A stretch of DNA of 64,000 nucleotides from an archaeon (GTDB lineage: Archaea; Nanobdellota; Nanobdellia; SCGC-AAA011-G17; PNOQ01): positions 141 through 64,140 of the forward strand of contig JABHIB010000002.1 in the NCBI GenBank assembly GCA_018671245.1. Reading direction: 5' to 3'. This document shows, piece by piece, positions 36,716 to 63,987 of this stretch; position 1 is the first letter of the stretch; every line of letters begins with the position of its first letter. Position numbers and translations under genes: made by a program. The notes under the pieces were generated by a model. The model ran no database searches. It worked only from the letters and a program-made list of their open reading frames with translations, and had not been told where the DNA came from.

Positions 36716-36868
36716 TTACTACTGTTCTTTTTTAAATGGGTTTTTAAATAAAAACAAAACCTTTATATAGTGGATAATTGCGCTAAATACAACAGGCAGG
36801 TACCCTCTTTCAAAATGAATCTAAATTTTCAAAATATCACAAATTTTATTTCGTTTAGATTGAGCTAT

Positions 36869-36943
36869 GCCCTGGTAGTGTAGTTCGGTTTATCACCTGG
36901 CCCTGTCGAGGCCATAACCCGGGTTCGAATCCCGGTCAGGGCG
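36869..36943 (+). tRNA. tRNA-Asp(GTC)
   Basis: GCCCTGG/TCAGGGC acceptor, TGGCC-CTGTCGA-GGCCA anticodon arm, CCGGG-TTCGAAT-CCCGG. Confidence 0.96.
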
Positions 36944-36958
36944 TCCTGTTAACATCAT

Positions 36959-37032
<74 letters not shown>

Positions 37033-37049
37033 CTTTAAACTTATATAAA

Positions 37050-54239: not shown

Positions 54240-56399
54240 ATGGCAGACATATCTATTGAAAAAATGAGAAAAGTGGCAGAGGATCCTAAATTTATCAGGA
54301 ACATTGCTATTGCGGCGCATATCGATCACGGTAAAACAACTTTTTCTGATAATTTATTGGCTGGTGCTGGTATGCTTTCAGAAGATTTAGCTGGTTCTCA
54401 AAGAGCTTTAGATTTTCATGATGATGAGACAGAAAGAGGTATTACTATTGATTCTGCTAATGTTAGTATGATTCACAAAGTTAGTGATAAAGATTATTTA
54501 ATTAATTTAATTGATACTCCTGGACATGTTGATTTTGGAGGAGATGTTACTAGGGCTATGAGAGCTGTTGATGGTGCAGTTGTTTTATGTTGTGCTGTTG
54601 AAGGGATCATGCCTCAGACTGAAACTGTTTTGAAACAAGCTCTTAAGGAGATGGTTCGACCGGTTTTGTTCATTAATAAAGTTGATAGACTGATAAAAGA
54701 AGTAAAGTTAACTCCTGAAGCTATGCAGGAAAAATTTATGCAAATAGTTACAGACATTAATAAATTCATTTTCAATTATGCACCTGAAGAATTTAAAGAA
54801 AAATGGCAGGTTAGTATAAATGATGGTAGTGTTGCATTTGGTTCAGCATTCCATAATTGGGGAATTAGTGTTCCTTACATGAAAAAACATAACATTTCAT
54901 TTAAAGATATTATTACTGCTTATGATGATGATAATCATAAGGAATTAGCAAAGAAAGCTCCAATACACGAAGTGGTATTAGATATGACTGTAGAGCATCA
55001 CAATAATCCTATGATAGCTCAAGCTTATCGTATTCCAAAAATCTGGCATGGAGATAAAGATTCAGAATTAGGAAAATCGTTAATTAATTGTGACCCTAAT
55101 GGTCCGGTTGCTTTTGTTGTAACTAAAGTTGTTGTGGATAAACATGCTGGAGAGATTGCAGCAGGTCGTTTATTTTCTGGAACTTTGAAACAAGGAGATA
55201 GTGTATATCTTAATGCTGGAAAGAAACAGGTTAGATTACAGCAAGTTTCTGTTTACAAGGGTGCACAAAGAACTGCATTAGAATCAATTCCTGCAGGAAA
55301 TATTGTAGGGTTAGTTGGATTGAAAGATACGTTTGCTGGAGAGACTATTTCTTCAGAACCTATAGAACCATTCGAGGCTATTAAACACATTTTTGAACCG
55401 GTTATTACTAAATCTATCGAGCCAAAAAGGGCTGCAGACTTACCTAAACTTATTGAAGTTCTGAAGCAAGTTGCTAAAGAAGATCCGAGTATTCAAGTTA
55501 ATATTAATGAAGATACTGGTGAGAATTTAATGAGTGGAATGGGAGAATTACACTTAGAAATTATTGAAAATAGAATTAAAACTGAGAAGAATATGGATGT
55601 TATCACCTCTCCTCCAATTGTTTCTTACAGAGAAACAGTTAATAGAGAGAGTCAGATTATGGAAGGAAAAAGTCCTAACAAACATAATAAATTCTTCATA
55701 TCTGTTGAACCTCTATCTGATGATATATATGGTGCAATAAAATCTGGTGATTTACCAGAATTAAGAATTAAGAAAAAGCATACTGATATTGTTGAAAAAC
55801 TTGTTGATCTTGGAGTTGCTTCTAAAGAAGCTAAGAAGTGGAGAGAGTTGTACAAGGGAAACGCATTAGTTGATAATACAAGAGGTATTGTTTACATCAA
55901 TGAAGTTATTGAGATGATTATGGATGCTTTTGAGCAAGTTATTGATGCGGGCCCTCTAGCAAGAGAGAACTGCGGTAAAATGCTTGTTAGAATAAATGAT
56001 ATGAAACTTCACGAGGATACTATTCACAGAGGTCCTGCCCAGGTTTATCCTGCTATTCGTGAGTCCATAAAGGGTGCGATGGAAAACGGTGGATCTTTCT
56101 TATTAGAACCTATTCAAGAGATTCAAATTGAGAGTCCTGCAGATTATCTTGGTGATTTATCTGCTTTAGTTCAGAATAAGCGTGGTCAGTTGATTAATGT
56201 TGATCAAAAAGGTGAACACATCACTGTTAAGGCTAAATTACCTGTTGGTGAAATGTTTGGATTAGCTTCAGATTTAAGATCAGCAACATCCGGTAAGGGA
56301 AGTTACTTTATTGTAGATCAGAGCTTTGAGAAATTACCAGCTAACTTACAACCTAAGATTGTGACTCAAATAAGAGAGAGAAAAGGTTTAAGGGTTTAA
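54240..56399 (+). CDS. fusA: translation elongation factor aEF-2
   Basis: AHIDHGKTT, RGITI, DTPGHVDF, NKVD, diphthamide loop HEDTIHRGPAQ. Confidence 0.97.
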   Translation: MADISIEKMRKVAEDPKFIRNIAIAAHIDHGKTTFSDNLLAGAGMLSEDLAGSQRALDFHDDETERGITIDSANVSMIHKVSDKDYLINLIDTPGHVDFGGDVTRAMRAVDGAVVLCCAVEGIMPQTETVLKQALKEMVRPVLFINKVDRLIKEVKLTPEAMQEKFMQIVTDINKFIFNYAPEEFKEKWQVSINDGSVAFGSAFHNWGISVPYMKKHNISFKDIITAYDDDNHKELAKKAPIHEVVLDMTVEHHNNPMIAQAYRIPKIWHGDKDSELGKSLINCDPNGPVAFVVTKVVVDKHAGEIAAGRLFSGTLKQGDSVYLNAGKKQVRLQQVSVYKGAQRTALESIPAGNIVGLVGLKDTFAGETISSEPIEPFEAIKHIFEPVITKSIEPKRAADLPKLIEVLKQVAKEDPSIQVNINEDTGENLMSGMGELHLEIIENRIKTEKNMDVITSPPIVSYRETVNRESQIMEGKSPNKHNKFFISVEPLSDDIYGAIKSGDLPELRIKKKHTDIVEKLVDLGVASKEAKKWRELYKGNALVDNTRGIVYINEVIEMIMDAFEQVIDAGPLARENCGKMLVRINDMKLHEDTIHRGPAQVYPAIRESIKGAMENGGSFLLEPIQEIQIESPADYLGDLSALVQNKRGQLINVDQKGEHITVKAKLPVGEMFGLASDLRSATSGKGSYFIVDQSFEKLPANLQPKIVTQIRERKGLRV

Positions 56400-56402
56400 T
56401 TT

Positions 56403-56813
56403 TTAGAGCAGAACTGCCAGCATTACAATAGCGCCGAATATAATACCTGCGAAAACTTGTAGTGTTGTATGTCCTTCTCTTTTTAATTGTTCTACCAGAG
56501 TCTCGTTAGGATATAATTTTTTGAATATTTTCTTTTGTTTTTCAACTTCTAATCTAACTCCTAAGGAATCTCTTATTACTATTGCACTGAAAGCTATAGT
56601 TACTAAAGTTAACATAGAAAGTTTTTCTGTCAATAACATCGCCGTACTTAGTGCCGATACGAATGAGGAGTGTGAACTAGGCATTCCACCATCAACAAAT
56701 AGTTGAGATAGGGATAGTTTTCTTGTTTTAATTATTTCTGTAATTGTTTTTATTGTTTGAGGGATAAATGTTGCTAAAATTAATCCTATGAATATCTTGT
56801 AAAATATTTCCAT
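56403..56813 (-). CDS. divergent PAP2 (DUF212) family protein
   Basis: GGMPSSHS, DSLGVR, GHTTLQVFAG. Confidence 0.9.
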   Translation of the reverse strand: MEIFYKIFIGLILATFIPQTIKTITEIIKTRKLSLSQLFVDGGMPSSHSSFVSALSTAMLLTEKLSMLTLVTIAFSAIVIRDSLGVRLEVEKQKKIFKKLYPNETLVEQLKREGHTTLQVFAGIIFGAIVMLAVLL

Positions 56814-56882
56814 ATTGATAAATTAATAATTCGATTTATAAGTTTATTCGTGATTATTATTTTTTTGACTGTTTTCGTAGAA

Positions 56883-56890
56883 TTTATAAG
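56883..56890 (+). promoter_or_regulatory. TATA box of the 56912-62250 operon
   Basis: TTTATAAG 21 nt before ATG 56912, the same spacing as other leaderless genes here. Confidence 0.5.
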
Positions 56891-56911
56891 ATTATCTTAC
56901 TTTCTTAATTT

Positions 56912-57910
56912 ATGGAAAAACTTCAAACTCAAGTGTATAATGATCTGATGGAGGATCCAATATCTAAATTATTAATTGATTATTATGTGAATGTTCAAGT
57001 AAATGGAGTTAATAGTTCGGAACTTCCTAGATTTAGTGAAATATCTTCTAAAAATAATAAAAGTTGTGGGATATCTATTAATAATATATTTATGTTAAGA
57101 TCTATTAAGGCTATGAGAGATATAATTGGAGGAGATACAATCTCTTATCAAGATGTTTGTTATCCTTATGAGGATTTGCCTTATGATTCTACTTGGACTT
57201 CTCTCTCCAGACTAGAAGAATGGTTTATGTCTGATCAGGGAACTTATGAACAAGGAGTTTCTGGAAAAGACGGAATTTTGTTTGCATTTGATTCTTGGAT
57301 AAATGGAAAGGATGAGCTTATTGAAGTTAATGATAGTGCAAGAATTTATCATAATAAACTTGTAGGGGGAGAACCTAGGTCTGAATTTATGACACTAATG
57401 TTGAATTTATTCAGATATGATATGAAATCAACTTTATCTGAATTAGTTCATTCAAAGGGTGTCGGATCAGGGACTACTTCACAAGTATCGGAAATGGCCT
57501 TTGGTGCAATGTTAGCTGGTCCAACTATAAATGCTAGAACTTATAGATTAAGGAATACTAAGATTTCTCAAACTCTTGATGTTGGACATTTCATGGTTTA
57601 TAATGTTGGTCTCACAGAAAAGCTAGTCGATGAGATGGTGTCTGAAAATTTTGATTTTAATGCTATTTATGATCCAAAAAATAGAGTTGTTGATATTGTA
57701 GAAGATTGGAAAATTTGTTTTGATAAAGTTAGAAACCACTGTAATTCATTATATAGATCTCCTCGAGATTTGTTAGATTTATCAAGAACTTTGATTTATG
57801 CAGAACAAAAAGATGGTGAAAAAATTATAAGATGTAATTTCAAACCAGTTTCGCCAGAATATGATGAAAATATTACTTCTTATCTAGGAGTTACTCAGAA
57901 TGGGAAATAA
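56912..57910 (+). CDS. uncharacterised protein, first gene of a putative biosynthetic operon
   Basis: 332 aa soluble; overlaps next gene; GVGSGT Gly-rich loop; no family recognised. Confidence 0.7.
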   Translation: MEKLQTQVYNDLMEDPISKLLIDYYVNVQVNGVNSSELPRFSEISSKNNKSCGISINNIFMLRSIKAMRDIIGGDTISYQDVCYPYEDLPYDSTWTSLSRLEEWFMSDQGTYEQGVSGKDGILFAFDSWINGKDELIEVNDSARIYHNKLVGGEPRSEFMTLMLNLFRYDMKSTLSELVHSKGVGSGTTSQVSEMAFGAMLAGPTINARTYRLRNTKISQTLDVGHFMVYNVGLTEKLVDEMVSENFDFNAIYDPKNRVVDIVEDWKICFDKVRNHCNSLYRSPRDLLDLSRTLIYAEQKDGEKIIRCNFKPVSPEYDENITSYLGVTQNGK

Positions 57911-59018
57911 TAGAATATTAAATACATTAGATGATGCAAAAAGACTAAGTGCTGAATATAATATACCTCTAACTGATATTATTTTGATAGGATTAAATAT
58001 CGAAGGGGCTTATGATTCATCAATTGTTTCAGATAGGATGAGATTCAATATGGTCCCAGATAATAGTGGAGGAAATGAGTTTTATTTCGCATTAACTAAT
58101 ACTAAAGATTCGAGATGGAAGATTAATGGTGGTGAACTTTCATTTAATGGTGAAAGGATAGGAAAAGTAGGAAATACTGAAGAAGATACTTGCGATAATA
58201 CTTATTGGAGAAGATTTATTTCTTTAGGTGGAAAAAATTGTGGAACTGAATTGACTATAAATTCAAATTCTAGAAGTTTTTGTTCTGGTTGTGAATTCTG
58301 TGGCACATATAATCTTAGTCCAGAGGATCAAGATGAAAAAGATTTATCTAATCCTGATAAATTAAGAAGAAAATTGGATAATATCTTGTTAGAGAATGAT
58401 ATTGTAGATTTATCTAACTTGCATGAAATTGGAGTCGTAACTGGATGTTTTCCTAATGAAAATTTAACCTTACAACATCTTAATATGTTACATGATGTTT
58501 TGAGAGGAGATTATGATTTTTCTGGCGAATTGAAATATGTTGGTTCACAGATACAGTCTAGGGAGGCTTTAGAAAATTTAGTATCTCACGGACCGACTGG
58601 AATCTCTCAAACTGTTGAATGTTTTGAAAGGAGAGATATATTATTGCAACCAAAAAAACAATTGTCTTTAGATTTTGCAAGGGAAATACTTGATAATGCT
58701 AAAGATTTAGGAATTAATACAACTTTATTATATATTATGGGACTTGATAAGTTATCTACTTTTGAAAATGAGATGAAATTATTTGTTCCATATCTAACTA
58801 AAATGCCAGTTATTAATACCTTGCAAGAATATGTTGAGGGGCAGAGTGATTTAAGAGTTCCAGAAGCAAGATCTATGGAATATTATTTAAAAGCTAGAAA
58901 GATAATGGAAGAAATCTGTGAACCTTTAGGTTTTAAACCTAATGTGTGGGAAAATTATAGAGGGCTATGGTTTACTGAATATTCTAAGGAGGGGTTAGAA
59001 AATGTCATCAGAATTTAA
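57900..59018 (+). CDS. radical SAM-like protein with atypical CX2CX2C motif
   Basis: SFCSGCEFCG; VVTG, TVECFER, YIMGLD TIM-barrel-like segments. Confidence 0.7.
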   Translation: MGNNRILNTLDDAKRLSAEYNIPLTDIILIGLNIEGAYDSSIVSDRMRFNMVPDNSGGNEFYFALTNTKDSRWKINGGELSFNGERIGKVGNTEEDTCDNTYWRRFISLGGKNCGTELTINSNSRSFCSGCEFCGTYNLSPEDQDEKDLSNPDKLRRKLDNILLENDIVDLSNLHEIGVVTGCFPNENLTLQHLNMLHDVLRGDYDFSGELKYVGSQIQSREALENLVSHGPTGISQTVECFERRDILLQPKKQLSLDFAREILDNAKDLGINTTLLYIMGLDKLSTFENEMKLFVPYLTKMPVINTLQEYVEGQSDLRVPEARSMEYYLKARKIMEEICEPLGFKPNVWENYRGLWFTEYSKEGLENVIRI

Positions 59019-60216
59019 TAGTTTATCAATTTCTGGCCATGATCCTTCTGATGAAGTCCATAAAAGTCTTAAGAAAAATGGAGTGAATTTTGCAACAGGA
59101 TTACCTTGTGGAATATTAAGATATTTTATGCATAATCTTACAAATGATTCAGAGATATTACATATGCCAGGATTAAATGAACCTGAAACAATTGGTATTG
59201 CAACAGGAGCATGGCTTGCTGGAAAAACTCCTGCAATTTATATGCAAAATTCTGGAATGTTGAAATCTGTGAATGACATTGCAGGATTAATGATGGCTAG
59301 TAAGGCACCTTCAATAATTCTTGCAACTTATAGAGGATGTTCTGGAGATAATGCTACTCAACATCAGATCACTGGTAGCATTACAAAACCTACTCTTGAT
59401 GCATTAGGGTTGGAGTATCATGAATTAAGCGATGACAATATTTCAGGTACGATTGATGATTGTTTCAATTTTATGGATGAAAGTGGATTTCCTGCAGTGT
59501 TATTAGTTAAAAGAGGGTGGTCTAATACAGAGGTTTTGAAAGATGTTTCTTTATATGCTGAAGAATTGAGAGATGAACTTAATTATCCTGTTGATCCTAC
59601 TCTTGCAGTAGATAATGCCCTTTCAAAAATTATAGATTATAGAGATGGTAATATCCTTGATAGGGATAGATCTCTTGATTCAATGTTTGAAGTTATAGGG
59701 AGAGATTCTGCAGTTTTTTCGTCTACTGGAATTATGAGTAGGTATATTTTTGAGAATTTTGATAGTCCGAATCAATTTTATAATTGTGGTGGTTTTGGTC
59801 AGACCTCAGTTATAGGGTCAGGATTTGCAGCGTCTAGAAAAGATGTGAATACTATTGCTATTGATGGAGATTCAAGTTTACTTACTAATTTTGGCGCATT
59901 AGTCACTAATGGTAATCTGGGAACTTCAAATTTTACTCACATTGTTGTCGATAATGCAGCATATGGTTCATGTTCAGAAGAAAAATCATTATCATTATCT
60001 GCCAATATCCCTCTGGTTGCTGCTATTCAAGATTATAAGAATGTGTTTCTTGTAGATTCTGCAGTTGGCATTCAAAAATCAATAGAATTGAGTTCGAACT
60101 TTAATGGACCAAATTTAATATATCTTAATATTAAGTTGGGTGGACCTAGGAATCCAAAACGACCGTTAGATATGGACATTACTGCGAGGAGATTTAAAGA
60201 GTATTTCTCACAATAG
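59002..60216 (+). CDS. fused ThDP-dependent phosphonopyruvate/sulfopyruvate decarboxylase family enzyme (Ppd/ComDE)
   Basis: FATGLPC, NE..IGIATGAWLAG, YMQNSG, YRG...QH, STG, DGDSS...DN ThDP motif. Confidence 0.88.
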   Translation: MSSEFNSLSISGHDPSDEVHKSLKKNGVNFATGLPCGILRYFMHNLTNDSEILHMPGLNEPETIGIATGAWLAGKTPAIYMQNSGMLKSVNDIAGLMMASKAPSIILATYRGCSGDNATQHQITGSITKPTLDALGLEYHELSDDNISGTIDDCFNFMDESGFPAVLLVKRGWSNTEVLKDVSLYAEELRDELNYPVDPTLAVDNALSKIIDYRDGNILDRDRSLDSMFEVIGRDSAVFSSTGIMSRYIFENFDSPNQFYNCGGFGQTSVIGSGFAASRKDVNTIAIDGDSSLLTNFGALVTNGNLGTSNFTHIVVDNAAYGSCSEEKSLSLSANIPLVAAIQDYKNVFLVDSAVGIQKSIELSSNFNGPNLIYLNIKLGGPRNPKRPLDMDITARRFKEYFSQ

Positions 60217-60229
60217 GGTTTTATTGAAA

Positions 60230-60967
60230 ATGGAAACACTACAAAAAAATTATTCTGCAATAATCTCTGATGCTGGAGATATTTTATTTAGTACTGTTAA
60301 AGGCCTTAAGAGAAAACAGGAAGTTATAGAGTATTTATCACATAGGTTTGATTCGAAAATTCCTATTGATGAATCAGTAAAAAATTTTAAATATTATAAT
60401 GACCTTGCTCAAACTAGTTTTGAGTTGTGGGAATCAATATTCTTATTTTCTAAATATGAACTTGGAGAACAGATTGGATATGGAGATTGTAAACAACTTG
60501 AAGATTATATTGGTGCTCCAAATATAAAATTATTTGATGGAGTTGTAGATACCTTAGAAAAATTAGACTATCTAGGTTTGCCTTTTATTATTTTGACTAA
60601 TGGTCCTAAATCTGGCAGATTCTATGATAGTTGTTTAGATGAAGTAATAAAAAGTGAATTAATTGAAAAAAAAGAGTTTGATAAATGGTCTTATAATTAT
60701 GGTGATTATATTTTTGCCCAGATATCTTCAAAGGATCTTGGTGTGAGAAAGCCTGATGAAATTATGTTTCAGACAGCATTTAATCTGGTTGATTCAACTG
60801 ATTCTCCGAGAAATATTCTTTATGTTGCACACACAAAATCCGAGATTAATGGTGCCTTAAATTTTGGATTTGATGTTGTAAATTGTGGCCCCGAAAACCT
60901 GGATGTCTCTCGAGATAATTTATATGAAATAAATAGATTTTCTGAATTATTAGGAATAATCACATGA
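60230..60967 (+). CDS. HAD superfamily hydrolase
   Basis: Motif I ISDAGDILF, LFDGV..TL, LTNG, KPDEIMF, YVAH..EINGA. Confidence 0.8.
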   Translation: METLQKNYSAIISDAGDILFSTVKGLKRKQEVIEYLSHRFDSKIPIDESVKNFKYYNDLAQTSFELWESIFLFSKYELGEQIGYGDCKQLEDYIGAPNIKLFDGVVDTLEKLDYLGLPFIILTNGPKSGRFYDSCLDEVIKSELIEKKEFDKWSYNYGDYIFAQISSKDLGVRKPDEIMFQTAFNLVDSTDSPRNILYVAHTKSEINGALNFGFDVVNCGPENLDVSRDNLYEINRFSELLGIIT

Positions 60968-62250
60968 AAGTTGCATTAATTAACCCTAAACAGATGGATA
61001 CAATAAATGGGAGATATCCTCATTTGGGTATTGGTAGTTTAGCTTCAATTTTGGAGAAAAATAATATTGAGGTCAAAATATGGGATATGCCAGTTTCCGA
61101 ACTTAATGAAGAAGATATAAGTAATATGTTACAAGATTATGATCCCGAGATTGTTGGAATTACTAGTAATTCTTTTACATTTCTTGAAGCAAAAAAGCTT
61201 GCAGGCCTTTCAAAATCAATCAATCCGGATGTTTTAACGATTGTTGGAGGGCCACACATATCTATTTATCCTGTTGAAACTTTAGTAAATAATGAATTTG
61301 ATATCGCAATACCCGGAGAGGCAGAGATTTCATTCCTTAATGTAGTTCAAACTCTACAAAACAATAAAAAATTAGAAGATATTAGAGGAGTAGTTTATAG
61401 AAACGGATCACAAATAATTAAGAATTCTCCAGAAAAATTGATAAGTAATTTAGATAATTTACCTCTTCCTGCAAGGCATCTTATGCCTAATGATAGTTAT
61501 TTTTCTCCAATTGCTCACAATGATAATTATAGTATTGTTACTACAGTTAGAGGTTGTCCTTTCAAATGTTTTTATTGTTCTTCGAATAATGGCAAATCAT
61601 TTAGAATGAGAAGCCCATCAAATGTTGTTGATGAAATTGAGTTTTTGATAAATGAGTACGATACAGAATATATTCAGTTTTATGATGATTCTTTCTCTTT
61701 TAATAAAAATAGAGTGAGAGAAATATGTCGTCAAATTAAAGAGAGAGATTTAGAATTTAAATGGGATGTTAGAACTAGAGTTGATATGGTCGATGCCAAG
61801 ATATTAGAGGATATGGAGGATGCAGGATGTAAAAGAATACGATATGGTATGGAATCTGGAGATCAAAGAATTTTAGATATTATGAGAAAGGGAATTACTC
61901 TTGAACAAATTAATAATGCAGTAGATTTAACAAAAGAAGTTGGAGGCATGGAGATTCTTGCGTATTTTATGATTGGAACTCCGGGAGAGACTCTTGAATC
62001 AATAGATAAAACGATAAGTTTGGCACAAAATCTTTCTGTTGACCATGTTCGTTTCAATATCACTACTGCTTATCCTGGGACTGATATGTATAAGTTTGGT
62101 TTAGAAAGTGGTTATTTTGATCAGGATTATTGGTTGCAGTATGCTAGAGGCGAATTAGACTATATTCCTGATTTGATTTTCGAAACCGAAGAATATAATC
62201 GAAATGATCTTGAAAAAATAATTAAACATGCAAAAGAAGTTTGTTCATAG
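60964..62250 (+). CDS. cobalamin-binding radical SAM protein (class B methylase-like)
   Basis: PHLG, IVGGPH, GEAE, RGCPFKCFYC, YDDSF, GMESG, FMIGTPGET. Confidence 0.93.
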   Translation: MKVALINPKQMDTINGRYPHLGIGSLASILEKNNIEVKIWDMPVSELNEEDISNMLQDYDPEIVGITSNSFTFLEAKKLAGLSKSINPDVLTIVGGPHISIYPVETLVNNEFDIAIPGEAEISFLNVVQTLQNNKKLEDIRGVVYRNGSQIIKNSPEKLISNLDNLPLPARHLMPNDSYFSPIAHNDNYSIVTTVRGCPFKCFYCSSNNGKSFRMRSPSNVVDEIEFLINEYDTEYIQFYDDSFSFNKNRVREICRQIKERDLEFKWDVRTRVDMVDAKILEDMEDAGCKRIRYGMESGDQRILDIMRKGITLEQINNAVDLTKEVGGMEILAYFMIGTPGETLESIDKTISLAQNLSVDHVRFNITTAYPGTDMYKFGLESGYFDQDYWLQYARGELDYIPDLIFETEEYNRNDLEKIIKHAKEVCS

Positions 62251-62351
62251 ATAGTTTTAAATATATTTAAAATTAATTCTATTATGCCTTAATTAATAGA
62301 AGGAAATATAGAGCATAGTAGTAAGTTTGTAAATTAAAAGGAGGTTTGAAT

Positions 62352-62558
62352 ATGATAGAAGCGATATTATTTTATTCATGTTTGGTTGATAGTTTGATTG
62401 CTAATGTATTAGCTTGGACTAATCAAAAATGGTATAAAAAAAGATATAAAAAAATGTCGAAGTATCTTCCTATGACTAAAAGTTGGTGTTTTGTGTATCT
62501 AGCTTTTGTATTATGGGTTGGATTTTCGTTACTAAGGCTTAATATTTTGCCTTGGTAG
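62352..62558 (+). CDS. small membrane protein
   Basis: Two TM; LVDSLIAN...WY...LP.TK.W...Y. Confidence 0.6.
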   Translation: MIEAILFYSCLVDSLIANVLAWTNQKWYKKRYKKMSKYLPMTKSWCFVYLAFVLWVGFSLLRLNILPW

Positions 62559-62614
62559 TCCCATTTTTTTGAAATAGTAAGCTTTTTATAGGCATATTTT
62601 GTGATTTTATTAAA

Positions 62615-62860
62615 ATGTTATATGAAAAATTATTCCTATATAGTGAAGATGGGCCAAAAATTGGTATTAATAGAGATTTGCCAAGATTGAAGTTTGATCA
62701 TCATTTCAAAAATGTTGAGATTGAACCTATAAAACCTATAGTGATTGAACCGTTTAAGGCACCTATTGAGTATGAGCCTGTAAATCCTATAGAACTAGAA
62801 CCTTCCAAGCCTTTTGAAGTGGAACCTGTTATTCCAGAGTATCAACCTTTCAAAGAATAG
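62615..62860 (+). CDS. small Pro/Glu repeat protein
   Basis: About five repeats of xExEPxxP; 3' end overlaps metK. Confidence 0.5.
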
Positions 62861-63987
62861 TTAGAAATTTTTTTTATCTTTTCCCAAGGAAGTTCCTGAT
62901 TTGAAAAGTGTCCGTAAGCTGCAGTTTTTTTGTAGATTGGTTTTTTTAGATCGAATTGAGAGATTATTTCTGCAGGTTTTAATCTAAAATTTTCCTTAAT
63001 TAATTCTATCAATTCATCCTCAGATAGTTCTGATGTTCCGAAAGAGTCTACGAATATACTAACTGGTTCTGCAACTCCTATTGCATAGCTTATTCCTACT
63101 TCACATTTTTTACATATTTTATTTGCTACCAAACTTTTTGCTATGTGTCTTGTTGCGTATGCTCCACTCCGATCTACTTTTGAAGGGTCTTTTCCCGAAA
63201 ATGCTCCGCCTCCGTGCCTACCTATTCCTCCATAAGTGTCTACTATTATTTTTCTTCCTGTGACTCCTGCGTCACCTTCTGGTCCACCTATAATGAATTT
63301 TCCTGTAGGATTTACTAAGAATTTTGTGTTTTCATCTATATACTTTTTGCAAACAGGTTTTATTATATGTTCAATTACGTCTTCTTTTAGAGCTTCATAT
63401 TCAATTTCTTCATCGTGTTGAGTTGATATGATTATTGTGTCTACTCTTTTTGGTTTGCTATGATCGTATTCTACAGAAACTTGAGCTTTTCCGTCAGGTC
63501 TTAAGTAGGGAATTGTATTGTTTTTTCTTAGCTCTGATAGTTTCTTTGTTAGTTTGTGTGCTAAATATATTGATAGGGGCATTAATTCTTCTGTTTCGTC
63601 CGTTGCATAACCATACATCATCCCTTGATCTCCAGCTCCCTGTTCTTTGTGAAGTCCTTCTCCTTCAGTCACACCTTGTGAGATGTCTGGGCTTTGTTGT
63701 TCTATTATGGTTGTTATTTTACAACTATCTGCATCTATTCCGTATTTTAATTTTGTGTAACCTATATCTCTTAGTGTAGTTCTAGCAATGTCTTCTATGT
63801 TTAGATTTGCTTTAGTAGTTAGTTCTCCAGCTATTACAAGATTGTTGCTTTTTACTAGGCATTCTATTGCCACTCTCGAATTAGGATCTTGACTTAAACA
63901 TTCGTCTAGAATTGCGTCTGAGATTTGGTCACAGATTTTATCTGGGTGTCCCTCTGTAACTGATTCTGAAGTGATTAATTTTTTCAT
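62842..63987 (-). CDS. metK: S-adenosylmethionine synthetase, bacterial/eukaryotic type
   Basis: [41 protein letters not shown]. Confidence 0.97.

Follow-up and report, generated by a model that had tools for sequence, protein, structure and literature searches.

Can a biosynthetic operon that contains a decarboxylase of the phosphonopyruvate decarboxylase (Ppd) family work without phosphoenolpyruvate (PEP) mutase (PepM), and what would it then make? This question is raised by five genes, here called g1 to g5 (Table 1), in a 64,000-nucleotide stretch of archaeal DNA (assembly GCA_018671245.1, contig JABHIB010000002.1, positions 141 to 64,140), the whole of which is referred to as the window. 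The window corresponds to contig C11 of a genome of 615,516 bases (G000; 15 contigs, 93.16% complete), whose relatives bear names such as Woesearchaeota and Nanoarchaeota. The original prediction had interpreted the genes as an undescribed operon that combines a Ppd with a cobalamin (B12)-dependent methylase in the manner of Fom2 and Fom3, makes a small molecule or surface modification with a C-P, C-S or C-As bond (or of nucleoside type), and lies near an S-adenosylmethionine (SAM) synthetase gene, metK. The co-occurrence of the genes elsewhere, the absence of PepM and the mixed character of the decarboxylase were confirmed; the Fom2/Fom3 logic, the link to metK and the carbon-heteroatom product found no such support. 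In our analysis, the data are best explained by a self-contained, movable, accessory cassette that makes a small anionic metabolite, with a core formed by g2, a radical SAM (rSAM) enzyme, and g3, a predicted thiamine diphosphate (ThDP)-dependent decarboxylase. All of the proteins except g1 belong to known superfamilies, and the family of g2 is unnamed. What is new is thus a biosynthetic cassette of new subfamilies, the core of which is tied to a third clade of the Ppd/ComDE family. As the original prediction had supposed, no published description of the pathway or of an rSAM/ThDP-enzyme pairing was found, although subscription journals and supplements were outside the coverage and may hold one.

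The core was recognized by its recurrence. When one genome per species was scanned, relatives of g2 turned up at 70 loci, in DPANN archaea, Candidate Phyla Radiation (CPR)/Patescibacteria, Bacilli, Clostridia, Christensenella, Sellimonas intestinalis, Treponema lecithinolyticum and a Butyricimonas; within the phylum of the source archaeon the rSAM gene is rare (6 of 401 sampled genomes). Open reading frames (ORFs) of these loci and of the window (71 loci) were called and clustered, and cluster representatives were annotated. A gene for a ThDP enzyme stands beside the rSAM gene in 65 of the 71 loci: the enzyme is Ppd-like and fused in 16, Ppd-like and split into alpha and beta subunits in 16, and phosphoketolase-like in 33 (664 amino acids; 411 bits against NF003616, with a cut-off of 777). 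Most of the remaining six loci end at contig edges, and tblastn detected Ppd-like fragments in two of the six (L026 and L068). By tblastn, g2 and g3 relatives are adjacent in 33 of the 70 genome loci. In a tree of the rSAM proteins (65 rows, those shorter than 300 amino acids having been dropped), the type of partner was strongly clustered, with 7 changes compared with 28.7 in shuffles. The pairing of the new rSAM family with a ThDP enzyme is thereby shown to be an obligate genetic linkage, and we consider it very probable that a dedicated pathway built on this pair is real. That the genes share no pathway, being chance neighbours or having separate housekeeping roles, is scarcely credible: g1 and g5 are indeed not kept outside close kin, but the linkage extends over archaea and several bacterial phyla, the reading frames in the window overlap, and the same five genes occur in a different order in a metagenome contig (L093). 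Compact and testable, the pair is shared by DPANN archaea, CPR bacteria, gut Firmicutes and an oral Treponema.

The partner in the window, g3, carries a TPP_enzyme_C domain (32.3 bits) and matches the phosphonopyruvate decarboxylase model TIGR03297 over its whole length (200.1 bits, E 5e-59), missing the cut-off of 312.5; its halves match ComD (TIGR03845, 90.1 bits) and ComE (TIGR03846, 89.4 bits), missing the cut-offs of 147.95 and 221.5. By these curated cut-offs g3 classifies as neither Ppd nor ComDE, in line with the mixed features noted in the original prediction. One of these features, the PC of GLPCG, is not specific for ComD, since it also occurs in RhiE, a true Ppd, and in the PepM-linked Ppd of a related genome (G046). 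Three rSAM-linked orthologues of g3 scored 261.9, 267.3 and 281.7 bits on TIGR03297, so that all four including g3 fall below the cut-off, whereas the four PepM-linked Ppds of related genomes scored 334.3 to 504.1 bits, all above it. A tree was built from 15 rSAM-linked and 4 PepM-linked enzymes; in it, a branch with a support of 100 in the Shimodaira-Hasegawa-like approximate likelihood ratio test (SH-aLRT) separates the two groups, and one long row (L014) was flagged by the tree software. Seventeen fused sequences were aligned, of which one truncated sequence and one with a misplaced motif window were excluded; all of the 15 with a readable window, as well as 14 of 14 split beta subunits, have DN.AY.SC(S/T/G)(E/G)E after the ThDP motif, where the PepM-linked Ppds have DN.S.DS.GGQPT. 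g3 itself has the ThDP motif (GDS-x26-DN) together with the invariant cofactor-activating E60 in the alignments. Taken together, the alignments and the tree place g3 in a third clade of the Ppd/ComDE family, which is tied to the rSAM enzyme, free of PepM and altered in the region after the ThDP motif.

Compared with Ppd, Fom2 and AepY (RhiEF structure 9IZ3), g3 has the ThDP fold and the domain order in common (E 1.7e-19 to RhiE and 6.1e-14 to RhiF) and keeps the cofactor-binding Glu and GD(S/G)...DN. It differs in having SC(S/T)EE instead of GGQPT, RGC.GE.A.QH instead of RGEP..DEPQH, a longer inter-domain linker, and an rSAM enzyme rather than PepM as its partner. The decarboxylase of CPR bacteria, split in two, resembles ComDE; the source organism is, unlike the setting of ComDE in coenzyme M synthesis, no methanogen. 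In the available text of PMC11350588 and PMC12141560, sulfo- and phosphonopyruvate decarboxylases are the sole activities named for this group.

The absence of PepM extends beyond the window. The PEP mutase model (TIGR02320) found no match in any of the 12 genomes with the rSAM/Ppd-like pair (G000, five DPANN genomes, five CPR genomes and G024). As a control, in four of four related genomes without the rSAM-type g3 (G030, G007, G050 and G046), PepM is directly beside a different Ppd; it is above the cut-off in the first three, and in G046 a PepM-like stretch of 247 bits lies within an ORF of 814 amino acids. ComA (PF02679) and ComC (Ldh_2, PF02615) likewise had no match in G000. Judged by this gene content, neither of the known routes, through PepM to phosphonates or through ComA/ComC to coenzyme M, yields the product. 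The true phosphonate clusters of the sister DPANN genomes are at L017 (G030, C1:110000-126000), L015, L016 and L014. In G030, a PsrA-like iron alcohol dehydrogenase adjoins the Ppd of the PepM-Ppd cluster, and four B12-radical-SAM-like stretches lie within 16 kb.

The cassette resembles fosfomycin synthesis (Fom1, a PepM; Fom2, a Ppd; and Fom3) in having a Ppd-family decarboxylase and a class B rSAM enzyme in one operon; however, it lacks PepM and a cytidylyltransferase, and g5 reaches the cut-off of no P- or C-methylase. The latter protein has both domains of a class B rSAM enzyme above their cut-offs (B12-binding PF02310, 70.4 bits; Radical_SAM PF04055, 85.7 bits). Against the 25 listed models of named class B subfamilies, all of its scores were below the cut-offs (the best, HpnJ, 198.3 bits against 577.6), and its likeness to P-methylases is weak (about 146 bits against cut-offs of 575-600; 146.1 against 600 for PhpK). 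A gene for such a B12 enzyme is linked to the core in none of the 70 genome loci and in one of 19 metagenome loci, and G000 and L093 are the only cases of the linkage; most other loci have class I methyltransferases, if any methyltransferase. Thus g5 is a lineage-specific tailoring gene, probably for a methylase, which leaves the comparison with Fom2 and Fom3 weak. It is the only ORF with a B12-binding domain in G000, where TPP_enzyme_C occurs in g3 and in one further ORF, on contig C1. In this 93%-complete genome, a search with one marker per pathway found no CobS, ThiC or thiamine pyrophosphokinase (TPK), and the uptake of both ThDP and B12 by the archaeon, which the original prediction had proposed, is plausible; cobalamin would seem to be imported for one enzyme, g5.

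One possible explanation of these data is that a C-P, C-S or C-As compound is made independently of PepM: the rSAM enzyme would form the bond of a 3-substituted pyruvate, g3 would decarboxylate it and the B12 enzyme would methylate it. The rSAM gene occupies the place that PepM has in the true clusters of sister genomes; phosphono- and sulfopyruvate are the only two substrates of known activities in the family of g3 (in the available text of PMC11350588). The weak P-methylase likeness of g5 points in the same direction, as do the best NCBIfam matches of the methyltransferase (cluster c9) in DPANN loci, which are to MduS, TehB and ArsM-type models; however, these matches are generic and weak (at most 70 bits, far below the cut-offs). 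Moreover, g3 has SCSEE and not the GGQPT of true Ppds after the ThDP motif, g2 matches no arsenic-related rSAM model of NCBIfam, phosphonate tailoring genes (2-aminoethylphosphonate transaminase, cytidylyltransferase) are not present, and the partner in half of the rSAM family is phosphoketolase-like, an enzyme that is out of place in such chemistry. Nothing was found that shows a C-P, C-S or C-As product, and the bacterial variants rather suggest sugar- or nucleoside-type chemistry; we therefore consider this route improbable. That the rSAM family is a second, PepM-independent maker of the C-P (or C-As or C-S) bond of a 3-substituted pyruvate, with decarboxylation by the Ppd-like partner, is in our view highly unlikely. 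To our knowledge, the surveys of phosphonate potential all count pepM; if the rSAM enzyme did make such a bond, DPANN archaea and CPR bacteria would produce phosphonate-like compounds that these surveys overlook.

The other half of the core, g2, scored 16.5 bits on Pfam Radical_SAM (PF04055), under the gathering cut-off of 29.5, and this domain is annotated for some of its homologues in precomputed Pfam data; the databases call its relatives "hypothetical protein" or "radical SAM protein". Its CxGCxFC (C128, C131, F133, C134), invariant in 57 of 57 homologues, is a three-cysteine 4Fe-4S motif with an aromatic residue before the last Cys. The canonical spacing in radical SAM enzymes is CxxxCxxC; that of g2, CxxCxxC, is shorter by one residue. 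The predicted structure, with a mean predicted local distance difference test score (pLDDT) of 91.1, shows a full radical SAM (beta/alpha) barrel preceded by a helical/beta domain of its own of about 125 residues. Sequence searches found no relative in the PDB and, in NCBIfam, PRK06267 at just 19.7 bits; no relatives were found in viral contigs. By fold, Foldseek matched the model to LipA (E 2e-7), and the Z scores were 15.3 for MqnE and LIAS, 14.5 for HydG, 14.2 for ThiH, 14.1 for PylB and NosL, and 13.7 for BioB. With these full-barrel enzymes (MqnE, ThiH/HydG/NosL, PylB, BioB/LipA) g2 shares the cluster loop at the start of the barrel and aligns over about 230-245 residues at Z 13.7-15.3. 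It differs from them in its cysteine spacing, in its N-terminal domain, in a sequence identity of just 9-15% and in lacking the cysteine triad of an auxiliary cluster, its other conserved Cys being just C98 and C183. The model is suggestive of a place among the small-molecule rSAM enzymes MqnE, ThiH, HydG, NosL, PylB and BioB. Furthermore, 7 of the 24 invariant columns of the family are Arg or Lys, which is suggestive of an anionic substrate. According to a hint from the Atlas, related rSAM clusters are commonest in Actinomycetota, and a fusion with ATP-grasp exists.

In the lineage of the source archaeon, the five genes travel together. Among 61 relatives, a close g3 was found only in G024 (68% identity), where g1 to g4 keep the arrangement of the window, g1 being truncated at the start of the contig. 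A scan of metagenomes gave 19 loci. In one (L092), g1 to g4 stand together, and in another (L093, a 312-kb contig) the order is g5-g1-g2-g3-g4 on one strand, with identities of 57%, 53%, 72%, 67% and 39%, respectively; the B12 enzyme gene is directly upstream of g1 there, at the end opposite to its position in the window. The sites in G000, G024 and L093 differ in their core genes. Three genes precede the set in L093; contig C14 of G000 carries their homologues, beside a Pol-beta nucleotidyltransferase (NTase) gene and the PEP synthase gene ppsA, and in G024 g4 is followed by the same NTase gene and ppsA. The different sites and the rearranged order therefore support the view that g1 to g5 form a single movable unit within this lineage, from which the neighbours, including metK, are excluded. 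The link to metK that had been suggested looks coincidental, since metK is within 10 kb in one of the 70 genome loci and in none of the 19 metagenome loci. In genomes so small, each accessory pathway is likely to matter for host-associated life.

The three genes upstream of the L093 cassette (483, 194 and 646 amino acids) were considered as members and rejected: the first belongs to the core, recurring in each of 31 relatives, and the G000 homologues are on another contig beside the NTase and PpsA genes, as in G024. The Pol-beta-type NTase was rejected on the same grounds. On C14 of G000 (L111, 6797-10613), three co-directional genes encode proteins of 489, 169 and 614 amino acids, the last of which has a TIM barrel like that of xylose isomerase; all of 31 relatives have the first gene, which marks a core operon of the order.

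Outside this lineage, the genes around the module give hints of its chemistry. Downstream of the rSAM and decarboxylase genes, DPANN loci encode a HAD hydrolase, the c9 methyltransferase and a protein showing a Cys-His-Asp pattern. The rSAM gene of CPR loci comes after those for the split decarboxylase and a methyltransferase of cluster c5, and another methyltransferase gene follows it. Bacterial loci of the phosphoketolase type add PHP phosphoesterases, GrpB, YjjG/REG-2-like HAD proteins, a macrolide-type glycosyltransferase, a DegT aminotransferase, a carrier-protein domain, a kinase resembling deoxynucleoside and thymidylate kinases (dNK/TMPK), a metallophosphoesterase, ABC exporters, LysR regulators and, in nine loci, a UvrD-like helicase. 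Class I methyltransferases are encoded in 34 of the 71 loci, hydrolases of the HAD or PHP type in 37. Taken as a whole, the neighbours of the module suggest phosphorylated intermediates of the sugar or nucleoside type and a product that is exported. In nine loci (L020, L025, L027, L028, L035, L036, L038, L042 and L045), a protein of about 200 amino acids (cluster c11) without a Pfam match has an invariant C, H and D in the motif GSCSxKH ... H ... DATWD; a PDB profile search with it found nothing, and we take it to resemble the transglutaminase-like Cys-His-Asp enzymes.

How, then, might the core and its partners act? Addition of a carbon radical to an enolpyruvyl group is the chemistry of MqnE and of NikJ/PolH; after PolH comes a phosphatase. 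In the scheme that we propose, g2 would take the place of PEP mutase and, by radical chemistry on a PEP- or pyruvate-type precursor or on a phosphorylated sugar or nucleoside, give a 3-substituted 2-oxo acid; g3 would decarboxylate this acid to an aldehyde and so pull the reaction forward; g4 would take off a phosphate or a similar good leaving group; g5 would methylate an unactivated atom with scavenged cobalamin; and g1 would be an accessory protein. The complete sequence of steps from g2 through g3 and g4 to g5 is tentative, and we hold it to be clearly less than an even bet; that the rSAM enzyme acts before the decarboxylase falls just short of even. Within the scheme, a C-C bonded product of the sugar or nucleoside type is somewhat favoured over one with a carbon-heteroatom bond. 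Suggestive, too, is that G000 has PEP synthase (ppsA), whereas no 2-hydroxyacid dehydrogenase that might provide (phospho)hydroxypyruvate was found there. Knowledge of the reaction would extend the radical SAM enzymes by a new activity and the Ppd-type enzymes by a new class of substrate, and could reveal a metabolite traded between episymbionts and their hosts.

Several observations weigh against this scheme. The fold matches of g2 are tied and single out no subfamily, and g5 and g1 are missing from most loci and thus say little on the core chemistry. The nucleophile and the acid/base Asp of canonical HAD phosphatases form a DxD in motif I, which is absent from g4, so that the label "phosphatase" is uncertain for this protein. 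The Pfam HAD Hydrolase model gave 21.3 bits for g4, under the cut-off of 26.4, and 33.1 bits, above it, for the orthologue in G024; motif I reads SDAG(D/E)(I/V)LF in g4 and its seven orthologues. The HAD proteins of cluster c2 in other loci, with FD(I/V/Y)G(G/N)T, likewise lack the second Asp of DxD, and its loss in both HAD families of the module may indicate a substrate with a good leaving group. The g4 type is conserved after g3 in 7 of the 71 clustered loci, the window included, and in further metagenome loci. Finally, the partners and the gene order of the core can be read differently. Three Clostridia loci with the phosphoketolase-like partner are sister (SH-aLRT 100) to the CPR clade with the split Ppd-like partner, and both sets retain the same c5 methyltransferase; since sister rSAM clades have different ThDP partners, the two kinds of ThDP enzyme have, by this tree, replaced each other at least once. 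Such a swap would be explained more simply if the ThDP enzyme acted first and one common two-carbon (C2) unit were obtained from different precursors, and the gene order in CPR bacteria is decarboxylase, methyltransferase and then rSAM.

An alternative possibility is therefore that the ThDP enzyme opens the pathway. Either a Ppd-like enzyme, decarboxylating an anionic 3-substituted pyruvate, or a phosphoketolase-like enzyme, cleaving a ketose phosphate, would deliver the same ThDP-bound C2 unit or aldehyde (a glycolaldehyde or acetyl equivalent), which the rSAM enzyme would then couple or rearrange, with methylation and dephosphorylation later; a possible product would be an antimetabolite of the deoxy or higher-carbon sugar kind, like 7-deoxysedoheptulose. 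Besides the swap and the CPR gene order, the frequency of the HAD or PHP hydrolases agrees with this, as do the DegT aminotransferase, the glycosyltransferase and the ABC exporters of the bacterial variants. However, the swap is not decisive, because a phosphoketolase-like enzyme could itself decarboxylate a 2-oxo acid; transketolases decarboxylate hydroxypyruvate. Furthermore, no 2-hydroxyacid dehydrogenase able to supply (phospho)hydroxypyruvate was found in G000, and no acceptor-forming enzyme is evident in the window. The addition of a C2 unit by a ThDP enzyme to a deoxy-sugar derived from 5-deoxyadenosine has a precedent in the available text of PMC8102628 and 10.1101/2020.12.30.424818. 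On balance we regard a pathway opened by the ThDP enzyme as rather unlikely, yet as the strongest of the alternatives.

The genes preceding the rSAM gene raise a different question, namely whether the module is an effector of anti-virus defence that makes a viperin-like modified nucleotide and is controlled by a cyclic-nucleotide synthase. In six of the 71 loci (L030, L034, L039, L041, L042 and L056), the gene just upstream of that for the rSAM enzyme encodes a PanS-like minimal diadenylate cyclase (DAC; mDAC for the minimal form) of about 150 amino acids (E 5.7e-23 to 37jy_A), and in seven others the gene in this place encodes a GGDEF/Cas10-palm protein of about 220 amino acids; all but one of these 13 loci are bacterial by record title. 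L093, too, has a GGDEF gene (210 amino acids), some 4.5 kb upstream of g5. In having such a synthase before the rSAM gene, these 13 loci resemble the guard systems Panoptoo and Panoptes, which combine PanS (an mDAC) or mCpol with S2TM-beta; however, the module is without an S2TM-beta or other known effector, and the window without a recognisable synthase. The term "radical SAM" does not occur in the main texts of 10.64898/2026.08.10.743927 and 10.64898/2026.08.10.743972. Ophion, which consists of an rSAM protein, PHP and a phosphoribosyltransferase (PRTase), was set aside as a separate, viperin-related system, as far as the available text of 10.1101/2025.09.30.679545 describes it. A patchy, cross-domain distribution and the UvrD/GajB-like helicase, PHP and GrpB proteins downstream of the bacterial rSAM genes would also suit defence. 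On the other hand, PADLOC 2.0 gave no match for g1 to g4 (for g5 it gave only the candidate model PDC-M51A, 55.7 bits), the rSAM family is absent from the viral contigs searched, the neighbours in the window are housekeeping genes, and biosynthesis better accounts for the LysR regulators, the exporters and the sugar-tailoring genes. A role in defence is thus very unlikely, and the biosynthetic cassette remains the best explanation.

The protein g1 was also considered in this connection. It has no Pfam or NCBIfam match, its PDB profile search found none, and its relatives number two among 5.8 billion clusters and seven representatives among 1.84 billion; invariably, g1 adjoins g2 (L019, L092, L093, L100 and G024). 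A fold search with its AlphaFold model (pLDDT 58.8) gave a best Z of 4.7, none reaching 5, and returned DAC domains five times at Z 3.1-4.2; the Atlas model (pLDDT 0.31) had no usable match. These weak fold matches would favour a DAC relative, and with it a link to defence, but a profile comparison with the PanS-like mDAC family gave a probability of 0.2%, and the relationship is unproven.

As to the layout of the locus, the ORF listing of the window shows the five genes packed head to tail on the + strand over 56912-62250, with overlaps of 11 nucleotides between g1 and g2, 17 between g2 and g3, and 4 between g4 and g5, and a gap of 7 between g3 and g4. The stretch is present in seawater and marine metagenomes (20 runs from 16 studies, none of them an RNA run and 6 being possibly the source of the DNA), and contigs were inspected from four of those runs, none flagged as a possible source. 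In run X7, a contig of 4071 nucleotides spans 55552-59622 with 1 mismatch and another of 3490 nucleotides spans 59755-63244 with 0 mismatches; contigs of run X8 bridge the PAP2-g1, g2-g3-g4, g4-g5 and g5-downstream junctions. Since these independent contigs bridge the junctions, the gene order is not an artefact of binning or assembly, and the five tightly coupled, co-directional genes seen in the original prediction are real.

Table 1. Positions of the cassette genes and adjacent features in the window
Feature	Start	End	Strand	Remarks
Possible archaeal TATA box, TTTATAA	56883	56889	+	read from sequence; 22 nucleotides before the ATG of g1
g1, 332 amino acids, unknown fold	56912	57910	+	lineage-specific; no family match
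g2, 372 amino acids, radical SAM enzyme of unnamed family	57900	59018	+	C128-x-G-C131-x-F-C134; barrel model
g3, 404 amino acids, fused alpha/beta ThDP decarboxylase (predicted)	59002	60216	+	Ppd/ComDE family; GDS...DN, then AYGSCSEE
g4, 247 amino acids, HAD-superfamily hydrolase	60224	60967	+	motif I SDAGDILF, without DxD
g5, 428 amino acids, cobalamin-binding (class B) radical SAM enzyme, probable methylase	60964	62250	+	Pfam domains
Hydrophobic ORF, 70 amino acids	62346	62558	+	no family match; cassette membership doubtful
Proline/glutamate-rich ORF, 81 amino acids	62615	62860	+	no family match; cassette membership doubtful
metK, bacterial-type SAM synthetase	62842	63987	-	TIGR01034, 576.9 bits; convergent, outside the cassette

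Because the DNA is AT-rich (31% G+C), the TTTATAA before g1 is weak evidence for a promoter. A scan for sigma-70-type promoters, whose design is not archaeal, gave no more sites than in shuffles, and the same bacterial-type scan, which is not built for archaea, found no intrinsic terminator. The hydrophobic ORF had no tblastn match in the 19 metagenome loci, including L093. Upstream of the cassette are the gene for aEF-2 and a divergent PAP2-family gene, and downstream the stop codon of metK lies 592 nucleotides past that of g5. While metK is of bacterial type, the rest of the genome has an archaeal look, with aEF-2 and, in relatives, L10e. Elsewhere in the window, between 22000 and 28000, the G+C content falls to 0.23-0.27, the GC skew flips and the large ORFs switch strand, so that this region may be an island or a strand switch; and at 36868-37033, genes for tRNA-Asp(GTC) and tRNA-Lys(TTT) are arranged in tandem.

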